Below, in pieces: positions 9,444 through 57,540 of a stretch of DNA of 64,000 bases (within the stretch, counting starts at the first letter, position 1; every line of letters starts with the position of its first letter). Source of the DNA: Acutalibacteraceae bacterium. GTDB taxonomy: Bacteria; Bacillota; Clostridia; Oscillospirales; Acutalibacteraceae. The position numbers were made by a program, and so were the translations under genes. Under the pieces are notes generated by a model that did no database searches, was not told the origin of the DNA, and was given only the letters and a program-made list of their open reading frames with translations. Location: assembly GCA_045531265.1 (NCBI GenBank), contig JAZSDP010000078.1, positions 27,610 through 91,609 of the forward strand. Reading direction: 5' to 3'.

Positions 9444-9500
9444 ATAAATACCTCCCTTTATTTTGAATGCAAAATGCAGAATGCAAAGCCATCGTTATTG

Positions 9501-9529
9501 ATTATACCACATTAAAACCGCTTTTACAA
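9501..9529 (-). promoter_or_regulatory. sigma-A-type promoter candidate for the ABC-2 exporter operon
   Basis: On the minus strand the elements are TTGTAA (revcomp of 9524-9529), a 17-nt spacer and an extended -10 TGGTATAAT (TATAAT is the revcomp of 9501-9506). Confidence 0.5.
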
Positions 9530-9545
9530 TAGTTTTGCAAATGAC

Positions 9546-12319: not shown

Positions 12320-12421
12320 ACACATCACGAAGTGATATTTCACACCGCAAAGCGGTATTTCACTTCCGAAGGAAATTTCACTTGACAAAAGGTCAAATTT
12401 CACATATCGGCATTGCCGATA
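12320..12421 (+). promoter_or_regulatory. array of five tandem CAC-hairpin-ATTTCAC units in the glgB 5' leader
   Basis: Five short hairpins are present: atcac-gaa-gtgat, accgc-aaa-gcggt, ttcc-gaa-ggaa, ttgac-aaaa-gtcaa and atatcggc-att-gccgatat. They are separated by ATTTCAC, at 12336, 12356, 12374 and 12396 (spacing 20, 18 and 22 nt). The array ends at the RBS. Confidence 0.55.
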
Positions 12422-14361: not shown

Positions 14362-14391
14362 TTATACTATTATATATAGGAGGAAATATCT

Positions 14392-16709: not shown

Positions 16710-16754
16710 TTCCGAATTCAAAAACCTTTTTAAGAAAGGACACGACTAAAGACT

Positions 16755-18183: not shown

Positions 18184-18217
18184 AAAAAGACGGCGGATAC
18201 CCGCCGTCTTTTTTTAT
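18184..18217 (+). terminator. rho-independent terminator ending the glg operon
   Basis: A 10-bp stem (aagacggcgg / ccgccgtctt) with an atac loop is followed by a run of T. Confidence 0.88.
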
Positions 18218-18364: not shown

Positions 18365-18394
18365 TTGACTTTATTGATTTTGTAATGATATACT
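18365..18394 (+). promoter_or_regulatory. sigma-A-type promoter candidate for the 2,434-aa surface protein gene
   Basis: The elements are TTGACT (18365-18370), an 18-nt spacer and TGATATACT (TATACT at 18389-18394). The AATGATATACT string is identical to the one in the giant-gene promoter. Confidence 0.55.
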
Positions 18395-18578
18395 GATACT
18401 AACTAAAAGTGACTCTTTATGCCCTTTTGGGGTTTCGGTATGCCGTAAAACGGTCAGGTCAGGGGCCGGGCAGGCTGATTTTTCAAGGGAAAAAGTGTAT
18501 CACAGTGAATTTCGTTTTTACGGCGAAGAGCCGTTTTATGAAATAAACAGGTTAATTTTTATTAAGGAGGAAATCTTA

Positions 18579-21500
18579 ATGAAAAATCAATTCAAAAAAA
18601 GTTTATCACTCATAATGGCAGTGCTTATGGTACTGTCCTGTTGGGTATGGGTTGCTCCCACCAAGGCGGAAGCAGCTGACTACAGAGACAGTTATTACTA
18701 CGTTAAGCTCACAACAAATGTAACCGATACCGGTGACGAAGATGGCTCAACCATTACTATTACATATAAGACCAACAACGGTATGGGCGAAACCGCGGAT
18801 TATGTAAAGACTTACGGTCGGATGGGTTGGAGCGGTCAAACTACAGTATTTGAGGGCTACATTCCCGGTTATCCCACTGCTGTTCATTGGAATATGCCTG
18901 TGGGTTGGGGTCGTTCAGAAAACCACAGAGATATTACTCTTTGGATAGGTAAGGATGCCGCAAACTGTACAACAAAGGCTTTATATAGTGAAGGCTACAA
19001 CTTTAAGGATGATAAGACAGGTCTTGTTGGTTCAACTAATGAAGACTGTTACCTTTCAGTTCCTCAGGGTCTTGAAACTCCCAGACCTAACAAGGATCAG
19101 TCCTTTTTCTATGATGACAAGGGCAACGTTTTCACATCTGATACCCTTGTTACTATTCCCGATGTAGGCGATACTACCGTTATTTCAAAGGATTTCAATG
19201 TTCAGATTTGTGACCAGTACGGCGTTTACTGGTACAACACCCCCACTTTCAACCTTTCAAAGACTGAAGGCGGTACGACGGATGTTTCTGATGAAGAATC
19301 CGGCTTCTGGTGGGTTGATAAGGGTACATCAGGTAAATCTGTAACTGTTAAAATTACTGAGCAGATGCAGAAGTCCCTTTCACTTCCTCTTTCTAACTCT
19401 GATGGTTATATAGATTATTATATCGTTGCTTCACATTCAGAAAATGACGGTACTGCAACTCTCTCAAGAAAAATCCGTGTTACATACCCCAAGTATGACT
19501 GGAAATTCAATACAACTGTCAGCGGTTCAGCATATACTGCAGACAAGATCATTATGCAGGACGGATCCTTCTACGATGCAAACAACGACTCTCAGCCCGA
19601 CGCTCACTTTGAGAAAGCTGATTATCTTGCATATAACCAGAAGGCTTCTGTATATCCCGTAAGCGCTGAAAGAAAAGGCTTCACCTTCCTCGGCTTCTGG
19701 ACTCAGCAGCAGTCCGCAACACTTGGTGACCCCAGTGAACCTTTCACTCTTGAGAGCAATTTCAAATATCCTATCAGCCAGGCAAACTATGATGCCCTCA
19801 CTGCCGAAGAGCAGGAAGGCTATGTTGTTGCCGGTGAACAGTGGAACTCCAAGGATTCCGCAATGCTCAACACAGAAGGCAACAAGACATACTATGCCTG
19901 GTGGCTTGCAGATGACGTCAACGTTAAGTTCTATGACATTGACGGTAAGTTCCTTCTTGAAAAAACAGTAAAAGCAGGTCAGCGCAACGGCGCCTTAACC
20001 TGGCCCACTCCCACTCAGCAGTTTGTAAGCGGTTCCTTCACTTACAGCAACTGGAACGGCAAGTGGGAGCATGCAGACGGTACAGTTGTTGATTCAACAA
20101 ACCATACCTTCTGGAACGACCTTGTTCTTACTCCTCTTTATGAAACAGTAAGCTTTACAAATAAATATAACATCGCTTTCTATAATACATACGGTGCAAC
20201 CGGTATGTTCGGCTACTCAAAGGAATACGGCTACAGAGAAACTGCAAACGTTCCTACAGCTGATGAAATAACAGAGCTTACAGAAGGTGTAGATTATACA
20301 TATACCTTCGAAGGCTTTGTAAACTGGAAGCCCGAAAACGGCAACTACCACATAATGCTTGAAGATGTAGACTTTGATGAAAACGGTCATGCACTTAACA
20401 TTATTGAAGACTTTACCGTAAGAAGTGATGCTTCATACTACCCCGTATTCAGACGTCACATCAAGAGCTATGATGTTTACTTTGAATATATCAATGAGCA
20501 GGCTGAATATGTAGGTGTATATAAGACCTTCAAATACGGTGAAACAATCACTCCTCCCGAAGGTGTACCCGCAGTTTACGCTGAAGAAGGCTTTGAATAT
20601 AAGTTCCTCGGTTGGACAAGAGACAACACTGACGTTAATCTCAGCCAGGAAGTATGCCGTCCCGATTATGAATACTACGCAAAGTATGACAACGGTACAG
20701 CTACTCCTTACACAGTTTCATTTGTATATAAGAATGAAAAGGGTGAAGATGTAACAACCACAACAGAGGTTAACCACGGCGATTATATCCCATTTGAATT
20801 TGTTGAATCCCTTAAGGATAAGCCTTGCGGCATCTTTGATGACGGTGAAAGCCAGCTCAGCTTCAACCTTGAAAAAGGTAAGTGGCATTTCAACGGCTCA
20901 GATTATACTTATGATGAGCTTGCCAACTATTCACCCACAGGTCATACAACATTTACTGCTGTTTACGAAGACGGTATTCCCTTCTACACCGTAACATATA
21001 AGGACGGTAACAACACTCAAAGCTACAGACTGCTCAGCGGTGAAAAGCTTCCTCAGTGGATTTATGAGGTTGAAGGTGAAGGCGGAGAGTCAGAAGAGAA
21101 GACTTATCTTCCCACAATTGCTGATACAGACGAAGGCCGTTACACATTTGAAGGCTGGTATGACGAGGAACAGCTTGACATTGCTGCTACCAACGGCACA
21201 AAGTACGAGGTTGGTGTTACACCCGTTACCGGCAATGTAACTCTTTATCCCCAGTTCTCATTCGGTAAGTTTGAATATCACATTAAGTTTGTAAACTACG
21301 ACGGCACAGAGCTTGTTAAGGGGACATTCAACTATCTTGATTCTCTCGGTGATATCACATACAACGCAAAGAATCTTGCAGTAAGACCTGCCGACGAAAC
21401 CTACACATATCAGTTCATCGGTTGGGACAAGAAGGTTCCCGAATTCTGTGAAGGCGGTGAACCCGACAGCACAATCACATTTGTTGCACAGTATAAGCCC

Positions 21501-24500
21501 GTCTATATCTATTATGATATTGATTGGCTCAATAGTGAAGGTGAAACAACACCTCTCAAAACAAGTAAGTATATCTATGGCGACAGAATCTTCACTCCTT
21601 CAGTAACTCTTTCACCCGTAGGTCCTGATTCAACAAAGAACTATGTATTTGCAGGCTGGTATTACAGAGATGCAGAAGGCGTTGAGCATGCTTACAACCG
21701 TAACATCACCGTTACAGGCGACATGCAGTTCTATGCAAAGTACGTTGAAGCTACTGCTGTTTACACCGTAACTGTTGTAACAGGCAAGAATGCAGCAGAC
21801 TACACCTTCACCGTAGAAGACGGAACATCACTTAAGAACCTTGTTTCAAATCCCGTTGCAGGCTATATCGATGCTGAAAAGCATGATGCTTTTGCAGGCT
21901 GGTACACAACACGCACAGCAGACGGTGAAACAGGCGAATTCACATACTCCGATATGTTCGATATCGAGAACGATGTTGTAAACGGCAATATCACTCTTTA
22001 TGCAACCTACACAGAAGGTAAGCATGTGCTCAACAAGAGCGAAGTTAAGGAAGTTCCCACATATCCTATGGCAGGTTACACCGAATATGACGGCACACCG
22101 GTTCCCGCTGATGACGGTAAGGGTGTTATGACCGTATGGTGTGAATGCAATAAGGAAAAAACTCAGAAGGATGAAGCTATCCCCGCTCTTACCGATAATG
22201 TTGCTCCCACAGGTACAGGTTACATCGGTACAAAGTGGAACACAGAAGACGGTGAACTCAGCGATGTTGTTTACGCTTCACCCAAAACAAGCCTTATCCT
22301 TACAACAACCGATAAGGGCGATAAGAACGCTCAGTTCAATCCCTCAGAACTCGGTATCGGTGTTCAGGAAATTCAGGCAGCTATTTATCCCGCAGCAGAC
22401 CCCATTACAGAAGCTGACATCAAGTTCACAGACGGTGCATTCGATCCCGAAAAGGGCGTATGGACAAAGATGTACGACTGGACTCAGATTCAGGCATCAC
22501 TTATAAATTACTACGGCGGTTGGGATAAGATTCCTTCCGTATATCAGAATTATCCCGGTAATGCAACCGGCGATATCGGTGCATACAATGTAACTGACGG
22601 TACAGAGTACAAGGTATATGCTGTTATCATTGATAAGGCAGGTAACTGGAAGTTTATGGAAACCTGCACCTTCGTATACGATGCAACAGCTCCCGTTGTT
22701 ACCTTCTCAGGCAGTTCAAACGCTGCAAAGGATAAGTTCTGCGGTGAAGTTACAATCAATGTTGAAGAAGCAAACGCTTACACCGTTAAGGCTAACGGCG
22801 AGGTTCTTACAGCAGAAGACGGCGTTTATAAGATTACCGAAGCCGATTATTACAACATCGTTGTTGAAGATGTTGCAGGCAACAAGGTAAGCAAGTATGT
22901 AACAGTAACTGCAGGCCACGATATGCAGGAATATGTTGTTGAAGCAACCTGTGAAATGAACGGTTACAAGACAGAGAAGTGTACAGTTTGCGGTACCCAG
23001 GACGCTGATGAAGAAATTATCGAATCCGAAGGTCACAAGATGACCACAAAGCATGTTGCTCCCACATGTACAGAAAACGGTTACGATGTAATGGAATGTT
23101 CAAAGTGTCATCTTAAGGAAATAGTTGAACACACTGCTACAGGCGAAGTTCTTTATCCTAAAACAGGTCACAGCTACAAGAAGGTTGAAGGCAGCGAAGA
23201 AAACGAAGTTATCGTAACTCTTCCCGCAACCTGTTCAGATACAGGTCTTGGCTACAACCTTTGCTCAGTCTGCGGTTACAGAAATATCGTAACTCTTGAT
23301 ATAAATCCCGATGCACATAATCCCTTCCCCGTAAAGGTTATCAAATCAACCTGTACTCAGGAAGGCAGCAGAACTCAGGTTTGCCGTTACAACCCTGAAC
23401 ACGTTCTTATCAACGAAACTCTTCCGCTTGCTGCTCATACATTTGACGGTTGGAGAGTTGAAACTCCGGTAGGCTGTTTTGAAGGCGTTAAAGATGAAAA
23501 CGGTGAATATACTCAGCTTCCCGCATACGGTCTTGAAGTAAACTACTGCTCAAAGTGCGGTATTGACAATGAAGTGGACGGTGTTCTTGTAACACGTGAA
23601 ATCAAGGAGCTTAAGAATCACTTCTGGCAGATTACAGACAGAACCGAAAATGCTGAAGGTACAAAGGCAACTGTAACATACGGTTGTACCGGATGTACAG
23701 CTACAAGAACAGAAACTGTTGATATTGAGCAGCTTGTAACATATAAGGTTGAATTCATCAACGGTGAAGAAACAGAAGTTATTGAAGTAACACGCGGTGA
23801 ATCCGTTGCTGAAGATGCAATTGCTGCTCCCACAAAGGCAAACAGTGAAGACGGAAAGCATAAGTACACCTTTGCAGGTTGGTTCACAAAGAAAGATAAC
23901 GGCGACTTCTCTGAAGAATATATCCTCGGAAAGGCTGTTTACAGCGACCTTAAGCTTTATCCCAAGTTTACTGAAAGCAACATCATCTATGAAGTGCAGT
24001 TCATTAAGGCTAAGTCTTTCAAGGAAGTTGAAGTCAAGGATGATGAGGGTAATGTAATCGGCACAAAGATTGAATATACCTACGAAAATCCCGATCTTGA
24101 AGACGTAACTACCCTTAACGGTTATAAGGGTGCAATAAGAAAGCCCTCCGCTGACCCCGTTCTTAAGGGTAACGATAAGTACACATTCGAATTTGCAGGC
24201 TGGAAGGACGCTGCAGGTAATATTGTAAAAGACTTTACAGTTAAGGATAGCGCTACCTATACTGCATCCTACAAAGAAATCAAGAATGTATACAATGTAG
24301 TATTTATGAACGGTACTGAGCCCTTCTATGTAATCGAAGGTCTCACTGCAGGTGAAAATGCTGTTTACAATAAGGTTGATACCGAAGGTAACATTGTATA
24401 TCCCACAAAGGCTTCCACAGCAGAAAAGCACTACACCTTCGACGGTAAGTGGTACACAAGTGCAGACTGCAAGGAAGAAGCTGATCTTACTGATATCCAG

Positions 24501-25883
24501 GAAAAGACAGTTGTTTACGCAGGCTACGTAGAAGCTGACCACAACTTTGACGATGGTGAAGTAATCCAGGCTCAGGAATGTGATAAGGAAGAAATCACCA
24601 AGTTTGTTTGCGAAACATGTGAATACGAAAAGACAGAAACAACCAAGCCGGTTAAGGGCCACACCAAGGACGGCGGCACATATGACGCTGAAACCGGTGA
24701 AAACATCTTCAAGTGTGAAGATTGCGGCACAGAACTCGAGCGCACCAAGGCTTCTTACACAATCAAGTTCTTCAATGATAACGGTCTTGCAATTGATATG
24801 ATTACAGTTCCCGCTAACACAGAAGTTGAATTTGATTATGGCGAAAACAATGCAAATGTTCCCACCAAGAAATCCGACGCCCAGTACACTTATACATTCG
24901 CCGGCTGGAAAGCTCCCGACGGAAAAGAATATAAGATGGGCGCAGAACTTCCCAAGGCAACAGCAGATATCGTTTATACAGCTTACTACACAAGCACAGT
25001 ACGTACTTACACAGTAAGATTTGCAAATGTAAACAAGGAAGTTGTTTATGAGGTTGAAGGCGTTGCATACGGTGCATCTGTTGATACAGTTGATACAGCT
25101 AAGAAGTATGCTTACACCGAAGCTAAGTACGGCGGCAAGCAGGCAAATGCTGAAGGCCACTATGTATTCAGCGGTTGGGATACCGACATTACAAAGATCG
25201 TAGGCGATACACTTGTTCGTCCCGTATTTACTCTTGAAGCACACACCTTTGACGGCGGTAAGGAAACCGGTGCAGACTGTGTAACTCCCGGCGGTACAAA
25301 GTATAGCTGCGCTTGCGGATACTCATATATGGGCACAGAAACCGTTCCTGCAACAGGCCATAACTGGAAGCTTGTGCAGACAATCGAACCCGACTTCGCA
25401 GAACAGGAGGATGGCAAGAGAATTTACGAATGTCAGAATCCCGGATGCGGAGAAAAGTACGAAGAAGTAATCAGCGGTAAGCTTGCAGAAATCAAGGTAA
25501 CCGTTAAGGATACCGCAGGCAACCCCGTTCAGAATGCTCTTGTTCAGCTTTACAGAAAGTCTGACGGAGCTCAGATGGGCGGCGAAAAAACAGGTTCCTC
25601 AGGTGTTGTAGTATTTATGGTACAGCCCGGTGAATACACCGTAACCGTTAAGGTTGAAGGCATTGGTGACACAAGCTACGATGTTGCTGTTGACGAAAAC
25701 GGCAATACAACCGGCAACCAGGATCAGGTTACAGTTGAAAAGCCTGCTGAAGAAGTACACAAGTGCGAATGCTCTTGCCACCGTAATAACTTCTGGGGCG
25801 GATTCTTCAGATTCTTCCAGAAGATCATCAAGCTCTTCACAGGTAAGGCTTCCTGCTGTGCAGATCCTGACTCAAGAATCTGA
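18579..25883 (+). CDS. very large secreted surface protein (2,434 aa) with about 14 Listeria/Bacteroides-type (InlB B-repeat / Flg_new-like) repeats, an Ig-like region, Cys-rich CxxC modules, a CarboxypepD_reg-like domain and a Cys-flanked amphipathic C-terminal tail
   Basis: The ATG at 18579 lies 8 nt after AAGGAGG, and the track ORF begins at an upstream GTG (18495). The signal peptide is MKNQFKKSLSLIMAVLMVLSCWVWVAPTKAEA. The aromatic-GW signature recurs (FLGFW, FLGWT, FEGWY, FIGWD, FAGWY x2, FAGWF, FAGWK x2, FSGWD), each followed by LYA/LYP-type strands. A terminator follows the gene. Confidence 0.93.
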   Translation: MKNQFKKSLSLIMAVLMVLSCWVWVAPTKAEAADYRDSYYYVKLTTNVTDTGDEDGSTITITYKTNNGMGETADYVKTYGRMGWSGQTTVFEGYIPGYPTAVHWNMPVGWGRSENHRDITLWIGKDAANCTTKALYSEGYNFKDDKTGLVGSTNEDCYLSVPQGLETPRPNKDQSFFYDDKGNVFTSDTLVTIPDVGDTTVISKDFNVQICDQYGVYWYNTPTFNLSKTEGGTTDVSDEESGFWWVDKGTSGKSVTVKITEQMQKSLSLPLSNSDGYIDYYIVASHSENDGTATLSRKIRVTYPKYDWKFNTTVSGSAYTADKIIMQDGSFYDANNDSQPDAHFEKADYLAYNQKASVYPVSAERKGFTFLGFWTQQQSATLGDPSEPFTLESNFKYPISQANYDALTAEEQEGYVVAGEQWNSKDSAMLNTEGNKTYYAWWLADDVNVKFYDIDGKFLLEKTVKAGQRNGALTWPTPTQQFVSGSFTYSNWNGKWEHADGTVVDSTNHTFWNDLVLTPLYETVSFTNKYNIAFYNTYGATGMFGYSKEYGYRETANVPTADEITELTEGVDYTYTFEGFVNWKPENGNYHIMLEDVDFDENGHALNIIEDFTVRSDASYYPVFRRHIKSYDVYFEYINEQAEYVGVYKTFKYGETITPPEGVPAVYAEEGFEYKFLGWTRDNTDVNLSQEVCRPDYEYYAKYDNGTATPYTVSFVYKNEKGEDVTTTTEVNHGDYIPFEFVESLKDKPCGIFDDGESQLSFNLEKGKWHFNGSDYTYDELANYSPTGHTTFTAVYEDGIPFYTVTYKDGNNTQSYRLLSGEKLPQWIYEVEGEGGESEEKTYLPTIADTDEGRYTFEGWYDEEQLDIAATNGTKYEVGVTPVTGNVTLYPQFSFGKFEYHIKFVNYDGTELVKGTFNYLDSLGDITYNAKNLAVRPADETYTYQFIGWDKKVPEFCEGGEPDSTITFVAQYKPVYIYYDIDWLNSEGETTPLKTSKYIYGDRIFTPSVTLSPVGPDSTKNYVFAGWYYRDAEGVEHAYNRNITVTGDMQFYAKYVEATAVYTVTVVTGKNAADYTFTVEDGTSLKNLVSNPVAGYIDAEKHDAFAGWYTTRTADGETGEFTYSDMFDIENDVVNGNITLYATYTEGKHVLNKSEVKEVPTYPMAGYTEYDGTPVPADDGKGVMTVWCECNKEKTQKDEAIPALTDNVAPTGTGYIGTKWNTEDGELSDVVYASPKTSLILTTTDKGDKNAQFNPSELGIGVQEIQAAIYPAADPITEADIKFTDGAFDPEKGVWTKMYDWTQIQASLINYYGGWDKIPSVYQNYPGNATGDIGAYNVTDGTEYKVYAVIIDKAGNWKFMETCTFVYDATAPVVTFSGSSNAAKDKFCGEVTINVEEANAYTVKANGEVLTAEDGVYKITEADYYNIVVEDVAGNKVSKYVTVTAGHDMQEYVVEATCEMNGYKTEKCTVCGTQDADEEIIESEGHKMTTKHVAPTCTENGYDVMECSKCHLKEIVEHTATGEVLYPKTGHSYKKVEGSEENEVIVTLPATCSDTGLGYNLCSVCGYRNIVTLDINPDAHNPFPVKVIKSTCTQEGSRTQVCRYNPEHVLINETLPLAAHTFDGWRVETPVGCFEGVKDENGEYTQLPAYGLEVNYCSKCGIDNEVDGVLVTREIKELKNHFWQITDRTENAEGTKATVTYGCTGCTATRTETVDIEQLVTYKVEFINGEETEVIEVTRGESVAEDAIAAPTKANSEDGKHKYTFAGWFTKKDNGDFSEEYILGKAVYSDLKLYPKFTESNIIYEVQFIKAKSFKEVEVKDDEGNVIGTKIEYTYENPDLEDVTTLNGYKGAIRKPSADPVLKGNDKYTFEFAGWKDAAGNIVKDFTVKDSATYTASYKEIKNVYNVVFMNGTEPFYVIEGLTAGENAVYNKVDTEGNIVYPTKASTAEKHYTFDGKWYTSADCKEEADLTDIQEKTVVYAGYVEADHNFDDGEVIQAQECDKEEITKFVCETCEYEKTETTKPVKGHTKDGGTYDAETGENIFKCEDCGTELERTKASYTIKFFNDNGLAIDMITVPANTEVEFDYGENNANVPTKKSDAQYTYTFAGWKAPDGKEYKMGAELPKATADIVYTAYYTSTVRTYTVRFANVNKEVVYEVEGVAYGASVDTVDTAKKYAYTEAKYGGKQANAEGHYVFSGWDTDITKIVGDTLVRPVFTLEAHTFDGGKETGADCVTPGGTKYSCACGYSYMGTETVPATGHNWKLVQTIEPDFAEQEDGKRIYECQNPGCGEKYEEVISGKLAEIKVTVKDTAGNPVQNALVQLYRKSDGAQMGGEKTGSSGVVVFMVQPGEYTVTVKVEGIGDTSYDVAVDENGNTTGNQDQVTVEKPAEEVHKCECSCHRNNFWGGFFRFFQKIIKLFTGKASCCADPDSRI

Positions 25884-25908
25884 CACTAAATCGGAACATT
25901 TAAACTCA

Positions 25909-25942
25909 GAAGACACACTCCGTTCGGGGTGTGTCTTTTTTG
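25909..25942 (+). terminator. rho-independent terminator between the two large genes
   Basis: The stem gaagacacactcc / ggggtgtgtctt (about 12 bp) has a gttc loop and is followed by TTTTTT (25936-25941). Confidence 0.85.
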
Positions 25943-26083
25943 TGTATTGATTTTGTTTGTAAGGGTAGCAGGAGCTGAAAATGTACAATACGATGATCAA
26001 AATCATATGTTTATTCTGATAATTCAATATATTGTGCACTCAAAATTTGCTATAACTATATACTGATGATTCCTCATATATGG

Positions 26084-26112
26084 CTGAAAACCTTTATTTA
26101 TAAGGTTTTCAG
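26084..26112. promoter_or_regulatory. perfect 11-bp inverted repeat upstream of the giant-gene promoter (candidate operator)
   Basis: The repeat ctgaaaacctt-tatttat-aaggttttcag is not followed by a T-run and lies about 80 nt upstream of the -35 element. Confidence 0.35.
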
Positions 26113-26191
26113 AGCCACAAGTAAAACTTAACAAAATAAAAACACGGCATATATGCAATATGTAGAATTAAAAAAAAATTAAGAAATCGTA

Positions 26192-26220
26192 TTGAAAAAT
26201 TTGACTTCAAATGATATACT
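26192..26220 (+). promoter_or_regulatory. sigma-A-type promoter candidate for the giant gene
   Basis: TTGAAA (26192-26197), a 17-nt spacer and an extended -10 TGATATACT (TATACT at 26215-26220) are followed by the palindrome acctata-gt-tataggt at the predicted transcript 5' end. Confidence 0.6.
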
Positions 26221-26340
26221 ACCTATAGTTATAGGTGTCTCTATGGGCATTTTGCACCCTTTTTTAGGGTTCAGCTCGGTATTTATATAGGGAATCCTAT
26301 TTATAACATACATATTCTTTCATATAAGGAGGAAAATTTT

Positions 26341-56300: not shown

Positions 56301-56697
56301 TAAAGCAGGTGCTAAGGAAACTGTTCGCTACGCTGTAAACGAACTGTTCAACAGAACAGCAGCTTATGACGTACCCGATATCATCGTTTCCGCACTCTTC
56401 GCAGCACTTGGTATGGCAATCGGTCTTGATGCTGCTATTACAGGCGATGTAATCACCGTACAGCAGATCTGGAAGGATCTCTTCGGCATCATCGGAAATA
56501 ACTCAGGCGACGGTTGTAAGTATGCAAGCATCGCTAAGGTTATGGAAGACCTGACCGGTGTCTGGGATGACACAATCGGTGACGATGAAGATCACGAAGA
56601 CGCAGTTGAAGATGCAGAAGAATCACTCAACTGGTTCCAGAGACTTATTAAGAAGATTAAGGAATTCTTCCAGAAGATTTTCGGTATCTTTAAATAA
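26341..56697 (+). CDS. giant acidic modular protein (10,118 aa) of unknown function, with an N-terminal signal/anchor and a C-terminal hydrophobic segment plus basic amphipathic helix
   Basis: A single stop-free frame spans 30,357 nt. AAGGAGG (26326-26332) lies 8 nt before the ATG. The N-terminus is MKVGKKVLSCVLAIIMIVSSVSVCFGVLGAG. Codon usage matches the neighbouring genes. The gene has its own promoter and a terminator at 56747-56776. The internal motif periodicity is only coherent in this frame. Confidence 0.93.
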   Translation: MKVGKKVLSCVLAIIMIVSSVSVCFGVLGAGNTIDNLMNRIELNHEALADFILEVETLEAKLAAAQTQALKEEIGAQLTEAKKRIPQQANASQWKVEVDSASGSWTWVARAYAEAAKVVVQQKDKHTYYGIYAEILSQVDAARAGRTTALTKAQYDEILKYFAFGETEEVAGGAYATPKVITLNIGAGFDVLKWAPDYNEIPTDAAELQLYNSWVKFGMSTVGDENNGLVGINEADITFDMQNQNSEMIAQALDVVKQSIIKFIALSEEGLTETNPETNEEITYLPWFTTNFAELAANDPALLDKTIMQISEKIVEFDTAIATAQVGNTEDIWNSYVSPHITGKKTWAEVNRWYETEIVGYIAKAYATQFKAQFEAAFAAADALGEAATGDQLYVYYLEVQDILAALDETVAYVNGESINIADQIIDAFDGGREYYNNILTRRNTLGYHTASKFSTEWADRYNEIYNFNLVDSKASVAMGHVWEKCDGTCGTTCDGKGNGQEDYVEGTDCTYGWVDANGDGIFTDDEKTTVAHCIHVDYNNALEFYTKAAALVADFEAKVFPLVTNDAGVIAFDRIATETLNEKSWNAFYATYQKANLNLNGAKYIDMKAKMDAFMGSIRLSGGMSYNVIKTYHDEFVALGYTECKDLSTNPATKDIFEEIFGKAGMTPYDNFINDLKRRAAVRIYEQLERIATYYGEGGNNVTYYNFESILAAEAALEAQQGALFTFLRAKPAYNPDADQFFDIVRDEEGNEISRTQKEGVIIYDIDDDLGAKYEEVSPYTVRAQEFKDNLALMRMEANLNPLEEFSWQGDKTILAYLFDRYNNANNYSGSYYEYLWVSGKGKLDYDAISDLIAEVGLGLGGKDTATLMDEVVKKFDKMILSKDLGSLLDALTANSATGEGLLGTWDITYTFNNPDGSTTTRTKGDKVENVREMLINLIMGLLYGGSLQNLLMSLYGLLGNVIMDLDMDIPVLGQVGAKLPEYLRGAIPLMPHWFTENWNGYSCNQTGVRWYKWFDGSLLGSSYNYENALRVLAQAPRHDSGKDTKSFWDSENRPNFGTYAGLPEDAWETYEPDEIWHVRNNVDLFKSLAAAACGLAAPLGVILCANDATLRAKSDILSIELNAIAHNAGDPLYDRLFIPLYELLGITQYSTSNPYGYRTGSEMKNATAIAGYLEGGDTTPYVQNYGYDMWSYVLTPLLNWMETKLFVNPLETILGLLPNLFCAIEYNQILPKIKNIALEFKLDLFGGISLYTLKVWDLLAPLLDNLGLQLDKGLDGVINMLLQVTKTNKATYDAEMAKPKEEQKAFLMKSVLDAKGNKIYDLYNKDGDVIQYNVDVAALTEQYPDGLPNEQYTSERKEVYVDKDGNYYWKLGLLAQTLFGTGSKGCNEGYLEMLNFNKKSGHGTVQLYVPVNRIVSMGTLTQKTVYGTNSNWTLYHINADSGDVLLALFRWLMNDGVVPKLLPLLNGLLGGGEATEEGGSSVSIIDTIVPIIDGQADTVIAILISLLNTYDVGYFNYVDTYKNLVDNLSGEKLEYTNFGSKDADNDGQPDFVIGKYLSESLADMATADVNTTDEQKLAKVDLAISKLDGLINTVVPSIIPVIMPMLDDLLKGDIGDIVKPLLEPLNDIQKGDTLADVVADILVQDGVMQLLAELLVGTGEQKEETLEDGSKVPAFQKDADGNYVLDENGQKIPVMDTGLLGGILGGGMLANLLPALADMDIDIRPPAFYDAAVAAGCTGISDWILGCYNDAIAQGADFKGDYHNMGWEWMKAPGENHKWFNVAEDATAEQKVDEFFNLLGTLLAPLNPILFLIFSGQDLTLLDELTIEGGQGYQSAMTLLIESLGFGKVKIAGTNYTASMSRSDYLAFVHGSTGGTDETKIPKDGRFWATAHSPLAPLFTALRAFLVGDDETGALGLLESPLTALLKMIPNLAYLLYSYETDELDETGAKVKTNNLAQAAKNLISPVLSVLNIIDPILSRALELDIESLLDSFLNVENMLNDLISGLVDGSDLDTGEDIVVTKFVDFGALAVYGGKANKDAISHTTGVGGTFTEFTGSPAQTLITLVRSIMTDDLIDSFVTMFMDYYATTEQGQQITDENREDWARVRDIVLALSVRAKTPATFENGNYNGTGVDLIVGLVVDLFTDYVPGQGVEMFYQKMADEGYSDAIMEKYGIQHVPYQWENITKDENDDLLFTPDDVEDTLDSFDAVIRKAAPDVIGILTSQGILDLSSLGIELDGEATTLYGVLTQLVEDFLFTDEIMATVANLLASLLGGGMVGDLLPLIKDAGIDITAVSIYKRTKTNSALREFMSYNITGGVDANGQITVDGEKRDITWADIADAHGYQAYEYDEHGNVVMDGDDAKLAYTKKLSVDKDGKPVYELDEDGEIKLDAQGNKIQAQEDDLDKPTMKLITSIYVQAKKDGKFVYTYKGKDAEGNSADLEYLSAFANLESFAVQVFEEDGTTPKKDENGKEVWTKYDLKPVYTDEEIPGAWSWDFDDVESRGYKNHIYGKLSYFVDSVWEIIGGLEDILEALFFGADTNKAVKLFDTLNIEGTDGFEDTLLPLLRGFGLDAILSNLNNSPATDADGNALVDPKGDGSVYTMLEELNDERKVTYGDENVNAIPANLVKGNAGMRRSLGTWRNAATNEIEAEAFKNFAIGRDWFAEEQNGTIYFDQAAGYDMATFLKVFLNYVLYFVEILASYPISTLMSALPTLAYFIVGDGLNEIVSNLLRFLTVLTDRLAPILAIDVNDIGAGLVDMLGTNEWGTFQEIFKFYVNEDGQKVYDEITYDENGKVVTVQKPAAEKNISLTETLLSFVANIKIDLDSDGVQESTITRFINAEAEKEAWALINANTDDKGVVNKDKLEEARQMRTAAVTAWLESVVALGEPFKGDYTDANGVDHNVPAKYHGYVKIDAYNGQISVPKNDMFMFILDFVFENTTLQEVLGDLLGYDITDENGTDADLLDELLTNVFRNPDYLVDLIVALFTTYTVAPNKDIPFIDIDEYHYNFYDEDGQTTYQDILPQIQAGTYAGSEISRVKTAYAIDNLDKLVGTVLNLFKKDLVKEGGLFDGIFTEEDDISLSVAVNGLLEDLLFTDDMINDLLGMLVGLLSGEGVGDIIGIVTDILESAAGIDISTAAFANNDTLESIIMKDGKAQTWSEIAEANKQYEYKYETIDEDGETVLKDGEPVYGTYFDKSATASSAVVDADGDGDEDDTVTLIPVYNQKQAQNADKEYEYYYFASEEDKTNDIRTPYFDKEQNKTEYVIPATDDAEEQKFVLTAVMVDDTDSQKTAVKFDKQWNIVPELADDATAEQKAAASKQARDNFVTVLWDVLEPLSPVLELLFTGRNLEIYGEITIRGFDGYEGFILPLINALAAPVYTKADGVTPYLDTNKYYPTQEAFELAVYGADKAPGGEDENADNTQVLLQSILDALLALVDSLCDRPISTIATLLPYLARFLESKGIDTILSNLLSPITAITDMIKNVYNLDIMGLIKGLLQGLAADMNKDAAAQTAAGFIEEKIDEAAEANANAGVALAAEEDDILNNDSGIDYSKYTFMEIIWDILEAVQIDLGDGKKLAISDLINDQFFVKLAACAWYDDEALGYVMIKGIDYADGEDEDINDSKVTNEQRDTDYYVDRETVLLFVLDNLLFQESVRDLIGGLIGDMEFTDEALTELKNNKDESKVLDTDYLLPVLLYGVFMDGEALERLLIDLLSWYDVEYAPERVDKTTPNSTLPEVDWDATGLNEAELENLPKQLDDLVAAVLPLLLELLPTFGVDLGIDLGGATDIKHIVENLIGSLFTDTVDEKTGEVKNGLATTLFTLLVKLFGGSNLDDILSMVYELTGGDEHAINLTLAYFKDSSTAIAKYFNEYKDAEGKTKAINTWAEAYEAFKVKVDFDAEKNFSYAEEDVNKENKIFDKNDGDYLYAVDDKGNIVHTYAQDAEGKAIPATDKGTTAVCPDCGETFYITAGDGKVLEGEDAANVVAYADGEFAYEYQWDIKLTGTNSFGVKDYTTALNLLGDIVTPLVPVLKLLLVEDGDLVILDGVTISAGDGYDRFVIPVAEMLGIEIENDKYAVAEFTNAEFGDFIVDGIVKLINKIVSSPIQTIIDLLPNLAYFITSNGLAQAVEQMLAPLLTLVDMVNDISGAKITLKNGTELVALDVYELLVGLLKDVIDLKGAKTAGEIITNLLTADGLEDLIMGLVKNEDGTTKLGFLDGLFADIVAKTVGITDVETARYFGSYVQGGHRMVKGVYATRANTVLQLISELILAENGLIFEILDLAGLDLNDPANATIKTVIDGLTGDNRYCILEVLLNYFNHYDVEGTIIDYLSFEAKEFAYETYTTDSTLSARKVRRAIKKLDQAVLALVPELLPLLEEIEFLKGALASVKDPDKGYEGVTIQKVVEAILSDLAFNDETMTMLVGTIIGLLGGEGLSGTLASLSPVLSKLVDVNIAPAAVADNAQTAGATALAQLIGEAIAGTEAARSSSYVDDDGLTVSTVREATWADIAEYYADNAYFYIVENVGEEYVLNNKTGDKVPVFNTETNEDGVKVPVFAEGEEAPDNAEDLFVSEDGYLMRKVYTYSIEKHFDKNEYEDGKVITIDGEEVTLYTRAIATDKDGNIIWADAEALKPTFQRVMDGEKYGFNWTYTVADDEATADVDESKTYSGVVYQNDATDADGFAEVEIDGKKVEVAVEEAFVMSGTQVLGATETDWGFDDADTFEEKKDVFLGELYGIVKAVEPVVDFLFHGEDITIQSTVNGNTVDAITLKGGEGYRYALYPLLQALAADQMGNSLVSGVDYGALKGTVGTLEAIVDGVFNVVENLAAGPVEYILTLLPSLSYFIKSDGIRLFVENLASPVFALLDVAEPAVGALLDDLLGGLLSPLVGDYMPAEYVNMEGRKVDDNGTPDDTTDDFKVYTLDEILHIAGKDGTNLVAILNNLVGGLIVKTEEGEEIEPITILPANFFADYVAYAVEIGSSFGQKMFYDLEVIKAGGKFGGNVGDTIAIPQADYTEDLKEYYTIVGDTRYSVSSWKVDIADSLVYLLQSVASADLLGVLAGDDHEEKVAKNDLIAIILDNLIKGNNNGLTIAEILVSLFEGYTVKYVPLNGIYIPIDHTGMTDAADIPVSLDNVILEALPVILPLLAGENVEEGSLMDTLTTALADLGENENAIKALVDGLINSFLTDDLVRGIVEMLVGILGNETIDMVLGLVKIGDHNLTAPEFKAQIDAHFAGKADYAAALAAIDSIIGEYGSWAEVAKANTKYAYTYVIKEATATAAAELGTYYAVSDKLGGTYQEIDGKEYLLTKKASDVKNDKGEVIGSVHETAVKFDEALTFGVDGADDKLTALINAFTVLLEPLTEVLQLVLQGKTLTLLSSNGKYVADSFEDIYGAETGQSNGELPDDDRDTADVGVIMGDGFIELRGSKGYDEGLLALAEAIFGQIKGTELEDKIPSGAEFNAYTDIEDILGAVVNIIMALVEGLENGPITFLADHLAGLLYFLASDNVNNLVNNVLALANGLLEVLEPLTGKDNIIDLLGMLGVDLSILEINKLLEMLTNLIRAPKDFEVTKAEDGSYTYVRDEKTVAVTTEEIKTKEVEKDGAKVTVEYVTVDTGLDLTIDLAMLKDLVAALGEYAVIDSLRTSANIGLATNNAGEYVNKDGQVIEGDAITTGKLTTVVGCRAHFIDGLLTFALSDNIIGKLLVKDETDPDNILNDLIDALTAEDAADGLIKFLNQLTSKYLVEYTVLAALDEELALTKLYTYYADSVNAPEGAHKRTIKKTDAEKTIDNLNNLVGPILELVGMGNLEDLVGGLVFTDDMVNMLVGLLAGLLPSLEGGDIANILDIVANVLGEEIDLSAATYAENAVLAPFFADVEASAEDGVITWADVAAHYTKYVYTYTIPADPEVEDSKPETVTVYAAEGETVYTTEDGKQYAITPVYEQKADKDGNLVYTTGDAEIIATKDYTIKTENGVTTATTKVDGADVVYTVTPVYTTTQATKAVYDFAWGMDAIEGDDDESKVLKQAHKFVDIIAAFLQPVDFILEVLLAGGTNTGDAENAKSISAFDEINIMGGSGYNYAIIPLLETLGVPNSMILTQAQYEEKIKTEGTLAPILDILLEYVIGGLNAPLSFVADLLTNLFYTVSQNGLTTIVSNLIAPVSELVRALEDTLPVAIKIDLTQIFVEGGEIFKIMLGDDVAINGATVGLDLNLDNNTIEDLLFGANGVLKNLAPDLVINFNIREFVRAAVAVDENGDIIYVDSLVDTDYDILTPENVEWRDRIVVDRADAVINFLDSILTTETINSLLTMLEVDLDEMLGEDMSFLADIINDAIEAPSTLIDTIVKLLSTAYTVEDIMVLYDELTEADYNYDNEVASKDDVALVLNKLDAVINNAIEPLLGILSGMDNMPALVTDIAAAIENGEAEATIGGVLDFVLGDLIFTDEIVNTVFGLIVGLLGSMDAKTFDLINNLLGEILHINLDPVEFARSIVAATGDTKVADYIASFPATEDTVLTWADIAAANKKLVYTYTIKATEEGAEDKVVEVYFDLDRTNETAYTAEDGVTYTLNKKMVEKDGVATDEQATKVVMTHNWGVDAAAAADKKDVFLGAILEILAPFGAVLDWLFCGEDIVLVYEGVTLHGGNAYDNVLVPLVKALGVEIDTDAELDAQNKTHAVDRVEALINGIFALVDKLADNPINTIVELVTGLSYFIASGGVAEAVEGIAAPIFGLVSTLEAIAPMSTINEIIAELAKDVKLPGDKPLTIDNIINIAGENGEGLVALINSLIGKIEIEDEAGNIINLNLLPDDFFLQVAQYGVNIETVAEVTAEMIAGGVDYQPDNKYVTEWSVDKADAIMYVLSTVCSDSFLKSLCSLMNQPEDSTVGGILLGLAGKQNNVVDILVTLLTEYTVTYTDFTRAPIEKEEVTHTAPMTEENLEAALAVLDKLIPSVIGLVGLDADSLQSLLGELLEGLDLGNLLADLLVPLLAGLDLGEILGYVEELTNISVDLSPEAFTHNKFGSKLAEFIGNAETWADIEAKYLNYIYTYELTDKDGNVEIGEDGKAKTAEYFSIKSDLDGKTVTVGEGDDAKEVKLSKKLVETTVKAEDGTENKVNVHDTKMKSDFDWELGLTGVDASFDGVIALVSDLLYPVDFVLGLLLTGDRIEALEEIGITGGRGYNFAIIPLLEAFGVEVITEAEYVEQAKTNGHLNYILTALFGKIEDELLVSPVKTLLSMLANLFYLVGSNGINNIAENLLGFANYLLVKAEPVFKVGISIDLSEMGLVGGKVLKTTFDADENGKPMPYVSSMAAGIRVNVSADALSKLLGDLIADLKLVDIDGDGVNDPLGLSLDLDFTELAAKMAATNEDGTIKKIATSQITTEGAPATWFNIEGDVEDTFTTLIDTILTDENAFALANLIESLLKDVDFSGMDGVDENGEANDEINVKGILNDVLYQKDGIKKVLGAVVLLLSGQYTVVKPDTAYKFLGILSYFLEGDDTGDKLNNAIDRLDAIIAREVPEILTMFIDGDSATGILKSLVDAADGATGLDDMLDSLLKELAFTPDNFAALMEMLVKAIAGFLTADLTGTLNDLLGIDLAPAAFATATGNAKLVAYVENALDADNEAKDEPAELTWADVWAANSTDGKANEYDWGVNDQSGFISAVLSLLIPLNPILDFIFCNGAIELLDGSVRLPGGDAYNKALIPLFKALGVDLATAETTTEALDALVDGLIGNTGLVGKLADAPFRTILELVAGLSYLLANDNLEPIIRNIAAPVFSILDLLKDVITMDQIDGILEGFIGMSLTDIIEIGNNGGANLVDLVNGLLGGIEVRDENGKLIDTVDALDSDFFVELSKYAIDVTDPEGLVDPTNVGEDANAWTVDAAETLMFILDNVLDETFLKVLCGKIAPDASEDDMLVGILTSLADKEIDLVEVILMLLENYTIRYNRYQQTTLTGAAADYTAFADNAAKVEAALPNAITALDTLLVSVLGMLGTGDDLGALIDGLIADADLGNLLMNLLVPVLAGLDLDTILGYVNDLTNLEVDIAPQAFADTKFGSKLGEFIGEAETWAELAAAAEWQQYVYTYVVKNEDGTDKIGEDGKVVTAEYISKDGTLTEVNLGTEKEPNVVALTKVMTNLTDLEGKKAYTYGDETLYLADKEVKVADDNTVTTVIKSGEGDAATEETVTIVPVMTHKTQFVSTFDWNIKTLEDAVNFAADLLLPLDVVFKVLLGGSEIIALEDGDTIRRADIRIKGGYGYNYAILPLLEALGVDAISQSEYDARINSVYHGSSLKYILDAIVGRVDEILATPVQEALGLFANLFYFIGSEGINTFAANLIAPVQTLLEEVCDVYPICITIDGSQIGVEGGKIIATSFDADYEAGSLAEGLKIDFKAEHISALLTNLLSGIKINEKPLGLTLNLNWLELAAAMAKRDAEGKIIYTDSAIEYGYKNTTVNSTDLTAHKNISGDAAATLVTLLNTILSNENVAVIKNLVKDLLKDANLDATIENLIDNVLSDRNAIINLVGTLVLVLTGEHEVRVMDMVFKFLGVTDYNVENADTAIASFDRLIGKALPVVLDMFADTSKPEAEWTILEQIAASGETTLKGIADWALNDLLFTDDMMATITDALVGALAGFLTESLAGTLGDLLGVDLNPVAFAQATGNAALIAYVTVPGTGTDGLVTWADVLAAHSTTTTVDGKEVTEIDNVFTGVNNKDAFLDALFSLLTPLDPVLGFLLRGYDLTIGAGLGVDDIKLKGNDGYSNAISILFKALGLGEMGATWVEATDDMNAVDALRHTIDYVFALVDSLCAKPFNTILVLLGNLSFFVANDGVEKLINNLVSPVLSLVDALSGTISRAELDALLVSLTKNEMLTLSGILNIAGDNGEALVELLNGIIPGSKVYEPMKDAEGNILVGEYKEYTKEAVENDKNNTYDEVVIKVLDADGNPKKDDEGNEITRTAYYKVVHVINALPATFFVDLAKAAIKVDTPTGLVDPTDIGKPVTKWHVETGDTLVFILSTVLSQDVLDILSNLLGLTDGTVKDILSGLVGKEEELLDVLVSLLAKYLVEYKAYTQPELDKINVTTAETHDNFNDIVTNLDALIPTILSLVEIGGKKYGSLNELISGFITDDIADMLVGMIVELLSGLPSETIDEILGYVKELTNLKTLDISPKAFANNDFGSKVKAFFEDAAAKAGTTLDKLTWAEAWEATSTVADDPETTDKVERKFNGYAWGIEGLNDLVDLLCDFIQPLDPILLVLLAGGQVRADFDGTTVGRSISALDEINIMGGMGYNYAIIPLLELLGVDAMSQAAYDSAVSNNHGSALYPILNQLISTVENDILKSPINWLAKILANLTYVIGNDDIGTIVDNLLAPVNQLIAKVDKVFPIAIDINIGDIGNETEYNKVVDTYLGVAHPGVEAGIHIRVEGKALADMLTGLLEGIEIEGKPLGIKIDLDWLKLAAMAGADADSNKKVDFETTNFSTKYDIYNGGAYKTIKGDAADTFVTILKLALTKENVEAILGALNVELSPEIKDIIDQIVEDPAKIVDIIANLLGGKLAYQPIQNRPISVTGVNYNSYFTFTEQNADIIANNLDTLLVQILDLAGLGSIRQLLGQFINNGMVNQLLDLLVGLLAGDSVGPILNTIAGIDLGIELPLTLPAFAAKISELAKTRDYLKGAAAHLNKGVAAGGEDATWANVGSFQDANVDWKVKDGDLYGFVQAVAGILTPLNGLLELLLIGEGKYLDVLGVVKIGGGNGYDYGIIPLLEAFGLKSSEVKNITEYKQAVAKDETQLLGYILNRIAYFADGLLDSPVNDLLTILPNLAYYFSNEGLLLTVKNLLAPVYTLVDTITKVLGVDLESFLKLEKLLSNIDLGIVVFNNKYDFKIPEIDWLKLAAQGGDKAQEVSTSRSIAANSYTKEMRADEYHAYTQANPNAPHKSTQKNIVADKGDTLTLIFTWLLEMFGTQHNRDALVNWIVDVFELKAGAKETVRYAVNELFNRTAAYDVPDIIVSALFAALGMAIGLDAAITGDVITVQQIWKDLFGIIGNNSGDGCKYASIAKVMEDLTGVWDDTIGDDEDHEDAVEDAEESLNWFQRLIKKIKEFFQKIFGIFK
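29150..55900 (+). repeat. array of ~15 divergent protein-level modules (about 465-810 aa each) inside the giant ORF
   Basis: Each module has four recurring elements. The first is a Gly/Leu-rich LFTDD-type segment. The second is a TWA[DE][IV] motif followed by a variable, Y/T/E/D/G-rich insert. The third is LLxPLxPxLxxLLxG...[GA]GxGYxxx[IL]xPLxxALG. The fourth is PxxTxLxxLPNLxYFxxSxG...NLxAPV. The GxGY cores start near 29731, 31831, 34012, 36436, 38515, 40678, 42643, 44587, 46288, 47881, 49441, 51118, 52627, 54217 and 55612. Confidence 0.8.
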
Positions 56698-56746
56698 GAC
56701 TCACTGAGATCTGAAAAGCTCAAAGAGCAACCTTAAATAAAACTAA

Positions 56747-56776
56747 CCCCCACTCATCACGAGTGGGGGCGTTTTT
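56747..56776 (+). terminator. rho-independent terminator after the giant gene
   Basis: A 9-bp stem (cccccactc / gagtggggg) with an atcac loop is followed by cgTTTTTa. Confidence 0.85.
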
Positions 56777-56847
56777 ATTGTTCTCTTTGTTGACATAATA
56801 TTCTAAAAGCATTATAATGAGATAAAATACAAAAAGGATGATTGAAT

Positions 56848-57540
56848 ATGCTCGAAGAACTTAAAAGAAAAGTACTTGAAGCTAATCTTAAGCTTCCTGT
56901 TTACGGCCTTGTTACTTTTACCTGGGGTAATGTCAGCGGTATTGACAGAGAAAAAGGACTTATAGTCATCAAACCAAGCGGTGTGGAATATGACGTTATG
57001 ACCGCTGAGGATATGGTTGTTGTTGACCTTGAGGGTAATGTTGTTGAAGGCAGGCTTAATCCTTCGTCTGATACTCCGACACATATTGAGCTTTATAAGG
57101 CTTTTCCTGATATCGGCGGTGTAATACATACTCATTCAACCTGGGCGACCTCATGGGCTCAGGCAGGCAGAAGCATTCCTGCATACGGTACAACCCACGC
57201 CGATTATTTTTACGGTGAAATTCCCTGCACAAGGCAGCTCACACCAGAAGAGGTTGCAACTGCCTACGAAAAGGAAACAGGCACCGTAATTATAGAAGCC
57301 TTTAAGGATAAAGACCCGATGGCAGTACCCGGTGTTGTTGTTTACAAGCACGGCCCCTTTGCCTGGGGTAAAACTCCTGACGAGGCTGTGCATAATGCCG
57401 TTGTTATGGAAACCGTTGCAAATATGGCTTACCACGCCGAAATGATTAATCCTGACCACAGCACGATTGAGCAATATCTTCTTGATAAGCATTATATGCG
57501 TAAGCACGGTCCCAATGCTTATTACGGTCAGAAAAAATAA
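56848..57540 (+). CDS. araD: L-ribulose-5-phosphate 4-epimerase
   Basis: The protein is near-colinear, by recall, with E. coli AraD ([17 protein letters not shown]..., [46 protein letters not shown]). I prefer the ATG at 56848 because an AAAGGA RBS precedes it, whereas the track ORF starts at TTG 56842. Confidence 0.95.

Follow-up and report, generated by a model that had tools for sequence, protein, structure and literature searches.

A stretch of 64,000 nucleotides (nt) from an Acutalibacteraceae bacterium (assembly GCA_045531265.1, contig JAZSDP010000078.1, positions 27,610 to 91,609 of the forward strand), hereafter the window, carries two neighboring open reading frames, ORF A and ORF B, whose products of 2,434 and 10,118 amino acids (aa) would, as far as the sequence allows one to judge, make up a conserved, co-regulated, Sec-exported and tail-anchored pair of giant surface proteins in ruminant-gut Acutalibacteraceae. 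This is the reading that we favor, with modest confidence. Conserved synteny and the cis elements common to both genes support the view that the two products are giant exported proteins whose genes are linked and probably co-regulated; we further infer the export of the proteins, their anchoring and topology, their co-regulation and their physical or functional cooperation.

ORF A and ORF B are linked across genomes

The N-terminal head of ORF B, a unique region described below, was scanned against one genome per species, which gave 29 loci, all in Acutalibacteraceae or Clostridia metagenome-assembled genomes (MAGs) and, where the host is titled, from the guts of goat, sheep, roe deer and water buffalo; one of them, L010, is 88% identical. 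The initial annotation had proposed to check whether the pair stays syntenic in related genomes, and it does. In 22 of the 29 loci a colinear, full-length ORF A homologue (30–77% identity) lies on the same strand and ends ~400–500 nt before ORF B, and in two others (L011 and L013) the homologue is present with five genes between it and ORF B. Some 25 of the 29 loci are testable in this respect, L015, L017, L020 and L033 having too little upstream DNA; L038 has ~6 kb of upstream DNA with no match to ORF A, its match to the ORF B head being only 65 aa long and located at a contig end. The same arrangement is found in three metagenome contigs reached through protein matches. The reverse scan, run with the ORF A C-terminus against metagenome contigs, returned four loci, and all three that have downstream DNA show the ORF B head ~400 nt past the ORF A stop. 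Orthologues of ORF A and ORF B are thus not routinely unlinked.

The surroundings of the pair are far from constant. The gene upstream of ORF A belongs to at least eight different contexts in 19 loci, including glgA, glycogen phosphorylase, seryl-tRNA synthetase, release factor 2, a HAD phosphatase and an ABC transporter, and the genes downstream of the pair differ among relatives too. The glgA–ORF A–ORF B order of the window is found again in L010, L022 and L026. A tie between the pair and the neighboring glycogen genes was considered and rejected, glgA being upstream in only 4 of the 19 loci. Finally, loci whose A homologue has a high identity to the window copy tend to have a B homologue of high identity too (Spearman 0.83, n = 23 loci).

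One subclade, represented by L011, L013 (=L007), L015 and L019, carries, immediately 5′ of the giant gene, a block of five genes (~5.4 kb) that encode an unknown protein of 252 aa, a class III aminotransferase, the N and C subunits of a split transketolase and an unknown protein of 267 aa. Behind this block, ORF B retains its own conserved promoter and leader. In L019, the order is glgA, a gene for a 427-aa protein (3009–4292, + strand), the five-gene block and ORF B; the 427-aa protein displays a DUF6273 domain, Cys modules like those of ORF A and an amphipathic tail, FFERIIDWFRALFDKIFGWMKK, so that the tail discussed below is found on a third kind of protein.

The two genes share promoter and leader elements

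Consensus scans located a promoter and an intrinsic terminator for each gene, all on the + strand. The ORF A promoter (18365–18394), which is kept in ~19 orthologous loci, consists of TTGACT, an 18-nt spacer and a TG-extended TATACT; that of ORF B (26192–26220) consists of TTGAAA, a 17-nt spacer and the same TG-extended TATACT. The terminators lie at positions 25908–25939 (ORF A) and 56747–56769 (ORF B). The 5′ leaders, of ~185 nt for ORF A (18395–18578) and ~120 nt for ORF B (26221–26340), both contain a box placed 14 nt past the −10 element, GTGACTCTTTA at 18409–18419 in the former and GTGTCTCTATG at 26235–26245 in the latter. In addition, an element located 5′ of the ORF B −35 hexamer (26150–26185, + strand), TATATGCAAtATGTAGAATT / TATATGCAAAATGTAGAAT followed by an A-run, is conserved in ~20 loci.

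The combined pattern TATACT-N14-GTGWCTCTWTR matches the window twice, in the leaders of A and B, when no match is expected by chance, a count that is circular because the pattern was derived from these two sites. The conservation of the box at both genes across species is independent evidence: 31 of 45 fetched loci contain the pattern, in every case upstream of an A or B homologue. Since the same box stands 14 nt after the −10 element in both leaders, the two genes are probably controlled together. More generally, the promoters, the whole leaders and the signal peptides of both genes are almost invariant (L010–L037) though the proteins themselves are only 30–55% identical.

The ORF B leader may form a hairpin near its presumed 5′ end (~26221–26236), with one compensatory change in its support. 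Rfam holds no family for the ORF A leader and gave no credible match for that of ORF B, and the hairpins that RNAalifold returned are short and show hardly any covariation; given how alike the sequences are, we claim no RNA structure in the leaders. Strong promoters and conserved, structured leaders would fit abundant structural surface proteins, and the conservation of the leaders may reflect the need to stabilize an mRNA of 30 kb.

Both proteins end in a Phe-rich amphipathic helix

The last residues of ORF B, which follow an acidic linker, form an amphipathic tail, ...LNWFQRLIKKIKEFFQKIFGIFK (56581–56694, + strand), that is kept in orthologues. ORF A ends in CECSCHRNNFWGGFFRFFQKIIKLFTGKASCCADPDSRI, and the orthologue alignment defines its tail as a Cys-flanked amphipathic segment, CxCxCH-NNFWGGFFRFFQKIIKLFTG-x3-CC-xDPDSRI (25764–25880, + strand), with 16 residues invariant among 13 aligned orthologues whose C-terminal regions are 34–86% identical to the window copy. 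The initial annotation had reported a C-terminal motif shared by both proteins. This holds for the design, which in A and B alike is a C-terminal Phe-rich amphipathic helix with FFQKI; demonstrable homology of the tails was dropped, as a tail hidden Markov model (HMM) from which the window sequences had been left out recognizes the tail of ORF B (E = 6e-14) and misses that of ORF A.

The hydrophobic moment is 0.80 for the ORF B tail and 0.69 for the ORF A tail, compared with 0.50 for the anchor of Escherichia coli PBP5, and at most 0.05% of shuffled sequences reach the value of either tail. Among 165 retrieved proteins of the module family to which ORF B belongs (see below), 107 carry the tail (consensus ...APNGFIKFFQKIIEFFQKIIDFFKNLF), always at the extreme C-terminus, and in 13 its place is taken by a transmembrane helix with Lys/Arg behind it; most of the remaining sequences are truncated contig fragments. 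Three proteins (P0048, P0074 and P0083) have a Cys-flanked version, CDCDCH...FFFKIANFFRRLFG...CECG, which is similar to that of ORF A. No NCBIfam model covers the tail. There is no NCBIfam LPXTG match on the A and B tails and no LPXTG in the C-terminal sequences, and Pfam and NCBIfam scans found none of the wall-binding domains SLH, CWB2, GW and LysM in either protein; anchoring through LPXTG, SLH or CWB2 is excluded by these scans.

By their extreme C-terminal position and high hydrophobic moment, the two tails match the sequence criteria of in-plane amphipathic C-terminal anchors, which are a functional class and not a homology family. Such an anchor is known in E. coli PBP5, where a C-terminal amphipathic helix tethers the protein to the outer face of the inner membrane (PMC2909392), and in pestivirus Erns, where the helix lies in the plane of the membrane (PMC3937272). 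The likeness of the A and B tails to those of PBP5/PBP6 and Erns is that of a short helix of high hydrophobic moment at the very end of an exported protein (for A and B, a protein predicted to be exported). The sequences are unrelated, however, and in the present case membrane binding is predicted for a family signature, FFQKIIxFFKNLF, borne by proteins of 2,000–10,000 aa, with CxCxCH and CC flanks in ORF A. We propose that the tail retains the proteins in the membrane because it alternates with true transmembrane anchors in the family and because of the PBP5 and Erns precedents. One may also speculate that the invariant CxCxCH...CC frame of the ORF A tail binds metal or forms cross-links, perhaps to the tail of ORF B.

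ORF B consists of a unique head and 15 diverged modules

ORF B (26341–56697, + strand in the ORF list) encodes a protein of 1,098 kDa, rich in Leu, Ala, Asp and Gly, with an isoelectric point (pI) of 4.16 and a net charge of −949. Self-comparison and profile searches delimited three parts, all read from the + strand: (i) a signal peptide, MKVGKKVLSCVLAIIMIVSSVSVCFGVLGA (26341–26430), with a Kyte–Doolittle score of 2.67, nearly invariant in 25 loci; (ii) the unique head, approximately aa 31–1059 (~1,030 aa; 26431–29517), for which homologues in the 29 genome loci were found (alignment A3); (iii) 15 diverged copies of a module (29518–56481), mostly helical, of 360–800 aa each and with 19–41% pairwise identity. 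The modules have in common the motifs PLxPVLxxLLxG, GGxGYxxAIxPLLEALG, LPNLxYFIxxxG, NLLAPV, FTDDxxxxLxxLLVGLLxG and TWAxxA. No tandem repeat was found in the DNA of ORF B. Over the whole 10,118 aa, no Pfam family was matched at E ≤ 0.01 except for one chance GDH_ACT3 fragment, and no NCBIfam model was matched at all.

The head has no match in Pfam or in the PDB. A cytochrome c555 match obtained with alignment A3 was rejected: it corresponds to a low-complexity Ala/Lys helix in which any significant stretch is absent. The head contains a Cys/His cluster at aa 481–540 (window positions 27781–27960), GHxWxxCxGxCxxxCxGxG ... HCxHxDYN, that is invariant in the five sequences of alignment A3; this cluster, to which no family corresponds, may be a metal site.

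A single module was modeled with AlphaFold2 from 41 module sequences, which gave a mean predicted local distance difference test (pLDDT) score of 72, with a core at 75–90: the module is predicted to be mostly helical, with small hairpins and a β-rich connector. With the 14 window modules only, the pLDDT was 53.5, too uncertain a model for its Foldseek output to have any meaning. Foldseek found no counterpart of the better model in the PDB (best E 0.86, template modeling score ~0.1) and none among viral models, and sequence and profile searches of the PDB with the module gave no match either. As for hydropathy, the signal peptides are the only strongly hydrophobic segments in both proteins; ORF B displays in addition three or four isolated segments barely at threshold (Kyte–Doolittle 1.9–2.1) and no transmembrane array. 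One of these segments, IIVSALFAALGMAIGLDAAI, at aa 10011–10033 (window positions 56371–56439; Kyte–Doolittle 2.08), lies ~105 aa before the C-terminus.

The profile of the 14 clearest modules (A1) was used for an exhaustive search of 1.84 billion representatives, which yielded 651 clusters at E ≤ 1e-3, 386 of them at E ≤ 1e-30. The family is visible through this exhaustive search, a word-indexed search with the module profile having returned four proteins only. All 15 copies of ORF B match A1, and ORF B therefore belongs to a module family without annotation in domain libraries. Its members are mostly proteins of 2,000–7,700 aa with 4–17 modules; the few entries with a source name, which come from Clostridia, Oscillospiraceae or Acutalibacteraceae MAGs, are labeled "hypothetical protein". 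No member longer than ORF B was seen, and complete relatives that have both its head and its tail include P0021 (5,829 aa, 9 modules) and P0018 (7,632 aa, 13 modules).

Two observations concern the genes next to other family members. In a subfamily with a transmembrane anchor (P0007 and P0006), the end of the big gene is overlapped by the start of a gene of 317–329 aa that has no Pfam match (L005, 17784–18737; L040, 7546–8535) and that may be a different conserved partner of these transmembrane-anchored proteins. The gene of P0008, a tail-bearing protein of 2,545 aa, has family 2 glycosyltransferase genes at both sides (L039, 57–1418 and 9955–10884).

ORF A is β-rich and Cys-rich

The ORF A frame spans positions 18495–25883 of the + strand; an ATG at 18579, preceded by the ribosome-binding site AAGGAGG, gives the 2,434-aa product (18579–25883; 272 kDa, pI 4.55). 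Inspection of the sequence pointed to a signal peptide, MKNQFKKSLSLIMAVLMVLSCWVWVAPTKAEA (18579–18674, + strand), which is nearly invariant among orthologues. The VLSC motif therein fits a lipobox-like pattern, but lipoprotein status was not adopted because a normal AEA|A cleavage site follows. The remainder comprises β-rich repeats of the Listeria–Bacteroides type, at least seven CxxC modules, to which the orthologue alignment adds Cys modules close to the C-terminus, and an Ig-like CarboxypepD_reg domain (Pfam, 34 bits). The scans assigned no family to the N-terminal domain, the Cys modules or the tail, and sequence and profile searches found no relative of ORF A in the PDB.

Listeria–Bacteroides repeats are common in large surface proteins of Clostridia (10.1101/2023.11.21.568195). 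ORF A resembles the proteins that contain them (Flg_new/TIGR02543, InlB B-repeat type) by ten Y-x-F-x-G-W signatures and near-threshold matches; ORF B has none of these signatures. The scores of ORF A are nevertheless just under the curated cut-offs (26.0 bits versus 27.0 for PF09479, 20.1 versus 20.95 for TIGR02543) and ORF A has neither an LPXTG nor a GW anchoring module, so that its assignment to this class is at best borderline.

The genes are intact, native and under purifying selection

The overall picture drawn by the initial annotation was borne out. The ORF list and the Pfam matches of the flanks agree on two giant, intact, same-strand genes sandwiched between glgB, glgC, glgD and glgA on the 5′ side (12442–18182), the last of which is followed by an intrinsic terminator (18184–18213, consensus scan), and araD, a class II aldolase gene, on the 3′ side (56842–57540). 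Pfam scans of the other ORFs of the window found no integrase, transposase or sortase, and the GC content stays within 0.42–0.47 across the window, with no step at the borders. The codon usage of both genes is native: their relative synonymous codon usage (RSCU) correlates with that of 12 flanking genes with r = 0.94 (ORF A) and r = 0.90 (ORF B), compared with r = 0.95 when one half of the flanking genes is set against the other. Also confirmed were the separate promoter and terminator of each gene, the −10 context and leader motif common to both, at identical 14-nt spacing, and the restriction of adhesin-like repeats to ORF A, where the matches are weak.

A 10,118-codon open frame cannot have arisen by chance, and the frame is open in relatives too: in 29 of 31 loci it runs without interruption for as far as the sequence extends (up to ~4,300 codons), the stops of the other two lying within 50 codons of a contig end. 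Compared with L010, the ratio of nonsynonymous to synonymous substitution rates (dN/dS) is 0.205 for ORF B (4,280 codons), 0.206 for ORF A and 0.051 for glgA. Both giant genes are thus under purifying selection (dN/dS ~0.2), and pseudogenization of the larger one in close relatives, a possibility raised at the outset, is contradicted by these data.

Some observations on individual copies should be mentioned. Frameshifts split the giant gene into two or three ORFs in some metagenome or MAG copies (L002 at ~10030, L041 at ~9003–10004, L008 at ~9324) and are indistinguishable from assembly errors, and in L001 a scaffold gap of 100 N led the gene caller to split the giant gene and to predict spurious ORFs on the opposite strand. 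The dS of ORF A relative to L010 is 0.70, about double the value (0.36) for ORF B and for the adjacent glgA; recombination or an exchange of alleles may have taken place at ORF A. The only RNA family that an Rfam scan of the window detected, a scan that did not include a dedicated tRNA search, is Gut-1 (RF01706; 66.8 bits versus a gathering score of 50), just upstream of glgB on the opposite strand (12332–12405, − strand).

A proposed mechanism and its alternatives

We propose that a chromosomally native two-gene cassette encodes two very acidic proteins with Sec-type signal peptides, each gene being transcribed from its own strong σA-type promoter through a highly conserved leader. Both proteins would be exported by Sec, as their signal peptides suggest, and each would probably be retained at the cell surface by its Phe-rich amphipathic C-terminal helix, placed in the outer leaflet of the cytoplasmic membrane. 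ORF B would project its unique head on a long fiber of 15 helical modules, and the β-rich, Cys-rich ORF A would be the shorter partner, likely with a binding role; such a division of labor, with a binding subunit (A) and a stalk or scaffold (B), is our interpretation of the two architectures.

Several points weigh against this proposal. The segment at aa 10011–10033 of ORF B, which the giant clade keeps (with a score of up to 2.43 in P0021) and the wider family lacks, may be a transmembrane helix; were it to cross the membrane, the topology would be reversed and the tail of ORF B would lie in the cytoplasm. The fiber picture is drawn from a single-module model of moderate confidence, the common ancestry of the two tails is unproven because the independent HMM misses that of ORF A, and all relatives are metagenome-assembled genomes. 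The link between the genes is not absolute either: L019 has the DUF6273 tail protein in place of an ORF A orthologue, members of the wider module family (e.g. P0007, P0008 and P0012) have no ORF A-like neighbor, and adjacency is not mechanistically required, since the genes have separate promoters and terminators and one subclade tolerates a five-gene insert. These last observations would suit the idea that A and B are independent surface proteins, adjacent by descent alone and functionally uncoupled. We consider this idea unlikely, albeit worth keeping in mind, because adjacency lasts down to ~30% protein identity despite at least eight turnovers of the upstream neighbor, the reverse search found the genes paired in three cases out of three, the box occurs at identical spacing and is confined to these two genes, and the tail design is common to both. 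It is also rather improbable that the proteins are released, for instance into an extracellular matrix or biofilm, with the tail driving self-association or association with a partner rather than membrane binding. This scenario would account for the absence of LPXTG, SLH and CWB2 wall anchors in the domain scans, for the extreme acidity of both proteins and for the resemblance of the Cys-flanked ORF A tail (CxCxCH ... CC) to a metal-binding or cross-linking site, and the amphipathic-helix-anchored Erns is itself partly secreted (PMC3937272). The 13 family members with a transmembrane helix and Lys/Arg at the tail position, however, point to membrane retention as the common role.

Two further explanations are less probable still. 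One is that ORF B acts as a secreted giant toxin or an antagonistic effector and inserts its helical modules, with their conserved hydrophobic helices (LLVGLLxG, LPNLxYFI), into target membranes; we regard this as very improbable, as the Pfam and NCBIfam scans revealed no domain of a toxin, an enzyme or an immunity protein, the fold search gave no match to pore-forming or Tc/LCT toxins, no immunity-like gene is adjacent, and the C-terminus, far from being a variable domain, is the most conserved part of the protein. Scarcely credible, finally, is the view of the locus as a horizontally acquired island, the cargo of a mobile element or a decaying or spurious ORF, for which one could invoke the variable downstream context among relatives and the frameshift-split metagenome copies (L002, L041 and L008). 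Codon usage and GC content are native, Pfam and Rfam scans found no integrase, transposase or other mobile-element marker in the window, searches for phage and plasmid homologues gave no matches, and the glgA–ORF A–ORF B synteny is retained in three other loci; the open frames and dN/dS of 0.2 already contradict this view.

The proposal of a tail-anchored surface pair can be extended in a more ambitious form, which we put forward tentatively, as possible rather than probable. The Phe-rich tail (NGFIxFFQKIIxFFxKIxxFFKNLF, clamped by CxCxCH...CC on ORF A) would be an unrecognized anchoring or assembly signal of Clostridia carried by hundreds of giant exported proteins and, in addition, A and B would be joined by their tails in a heteromeric envelope structure >100 nm long, with a new fold, under the control of a dedicated, ultra-conserved leader/operator common to both genes.

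Relation to known systems and significance

Giant, C-terminally tethered surface proteins of Firmicutes are an already known kind of system, and the closest functional analogue of ORF B appears to be Ebh, the giant surface protein of Staphylococcus aureus. Ebh contains a long array of helical repeat modules of ~126 aa each, as against 360–800 aa for the modules of ORF B. It is a protein of ~1.1 MDa and ~10,000 aa, with a signal peptide and a C-terminal tether to the cytoplasmic membrane (PMC4856396). The likeness extends to the size, the N-terminal signal peptide (which for ORF B is predicted), the array of helical modules, the C-terminal tethering (which for ORF B is proposed) and the Firmicute host. 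However, ORF B lacks the FIVAR, GA and DUF1542 domains of Ebh and has no detectable sequence or fold similarity to it, which places it outside the Ebh family; its C-terminus is an amphipathic helix where Ebh has a transmembrane segment, and the conserved partner gene and conserved leader are features of ORF B.

A second comparison is with the giants described by West-Roberts et al., which are arrays of RCC1 propellers in Oscillospiraceae and proteins with many transmembrane segments and SecA-DEAD domains in Omnitrophota (bioRxiv 10.1101/2023.11.21.568195). ORF B has in common with them a very long gene of gut Clostridia, a repeat architecture and a predicted extracellular location. In contrast to the Oscillospiraceae giants, it has no RCC1 (PF00415) match and its module is predicted to be mostly helical; in contrast to those of Omnitrophota, it has neither a transmembrane array nor a SecA-DEAD or other Pfam domain. 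In the domain libraries and literature searched, we found no description of the module family, the tail signal, the Cys-clamped partner or the ultra-conserved leaders.

Giant exported proteins of gut Firmicutes are common in metagenomes and almost entirely uncharacterized, and the locus described here is a clean test case, with a protein of 1.1 MDa in which no domain is recognizable, a family of ~650 clusters, a conserved partner, a candidate anchor signal and a regulatory leader. The leaders, which are far more conserved than the coding sequences, may serve as a model for the control and stabilization of a 30-kb mRNA. A tail that proved to be a general signal for membrane retention would represent a new class of Gram-positive surface anchoring and would help to annotate hundreds of giants now called "hypothetical". 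Should the pair form a surface fiber or coat, it would probably shape the contact of the abundant Acutalibacteraceae of the ruminant gut with feed particles, host mucus, phages or other cells.

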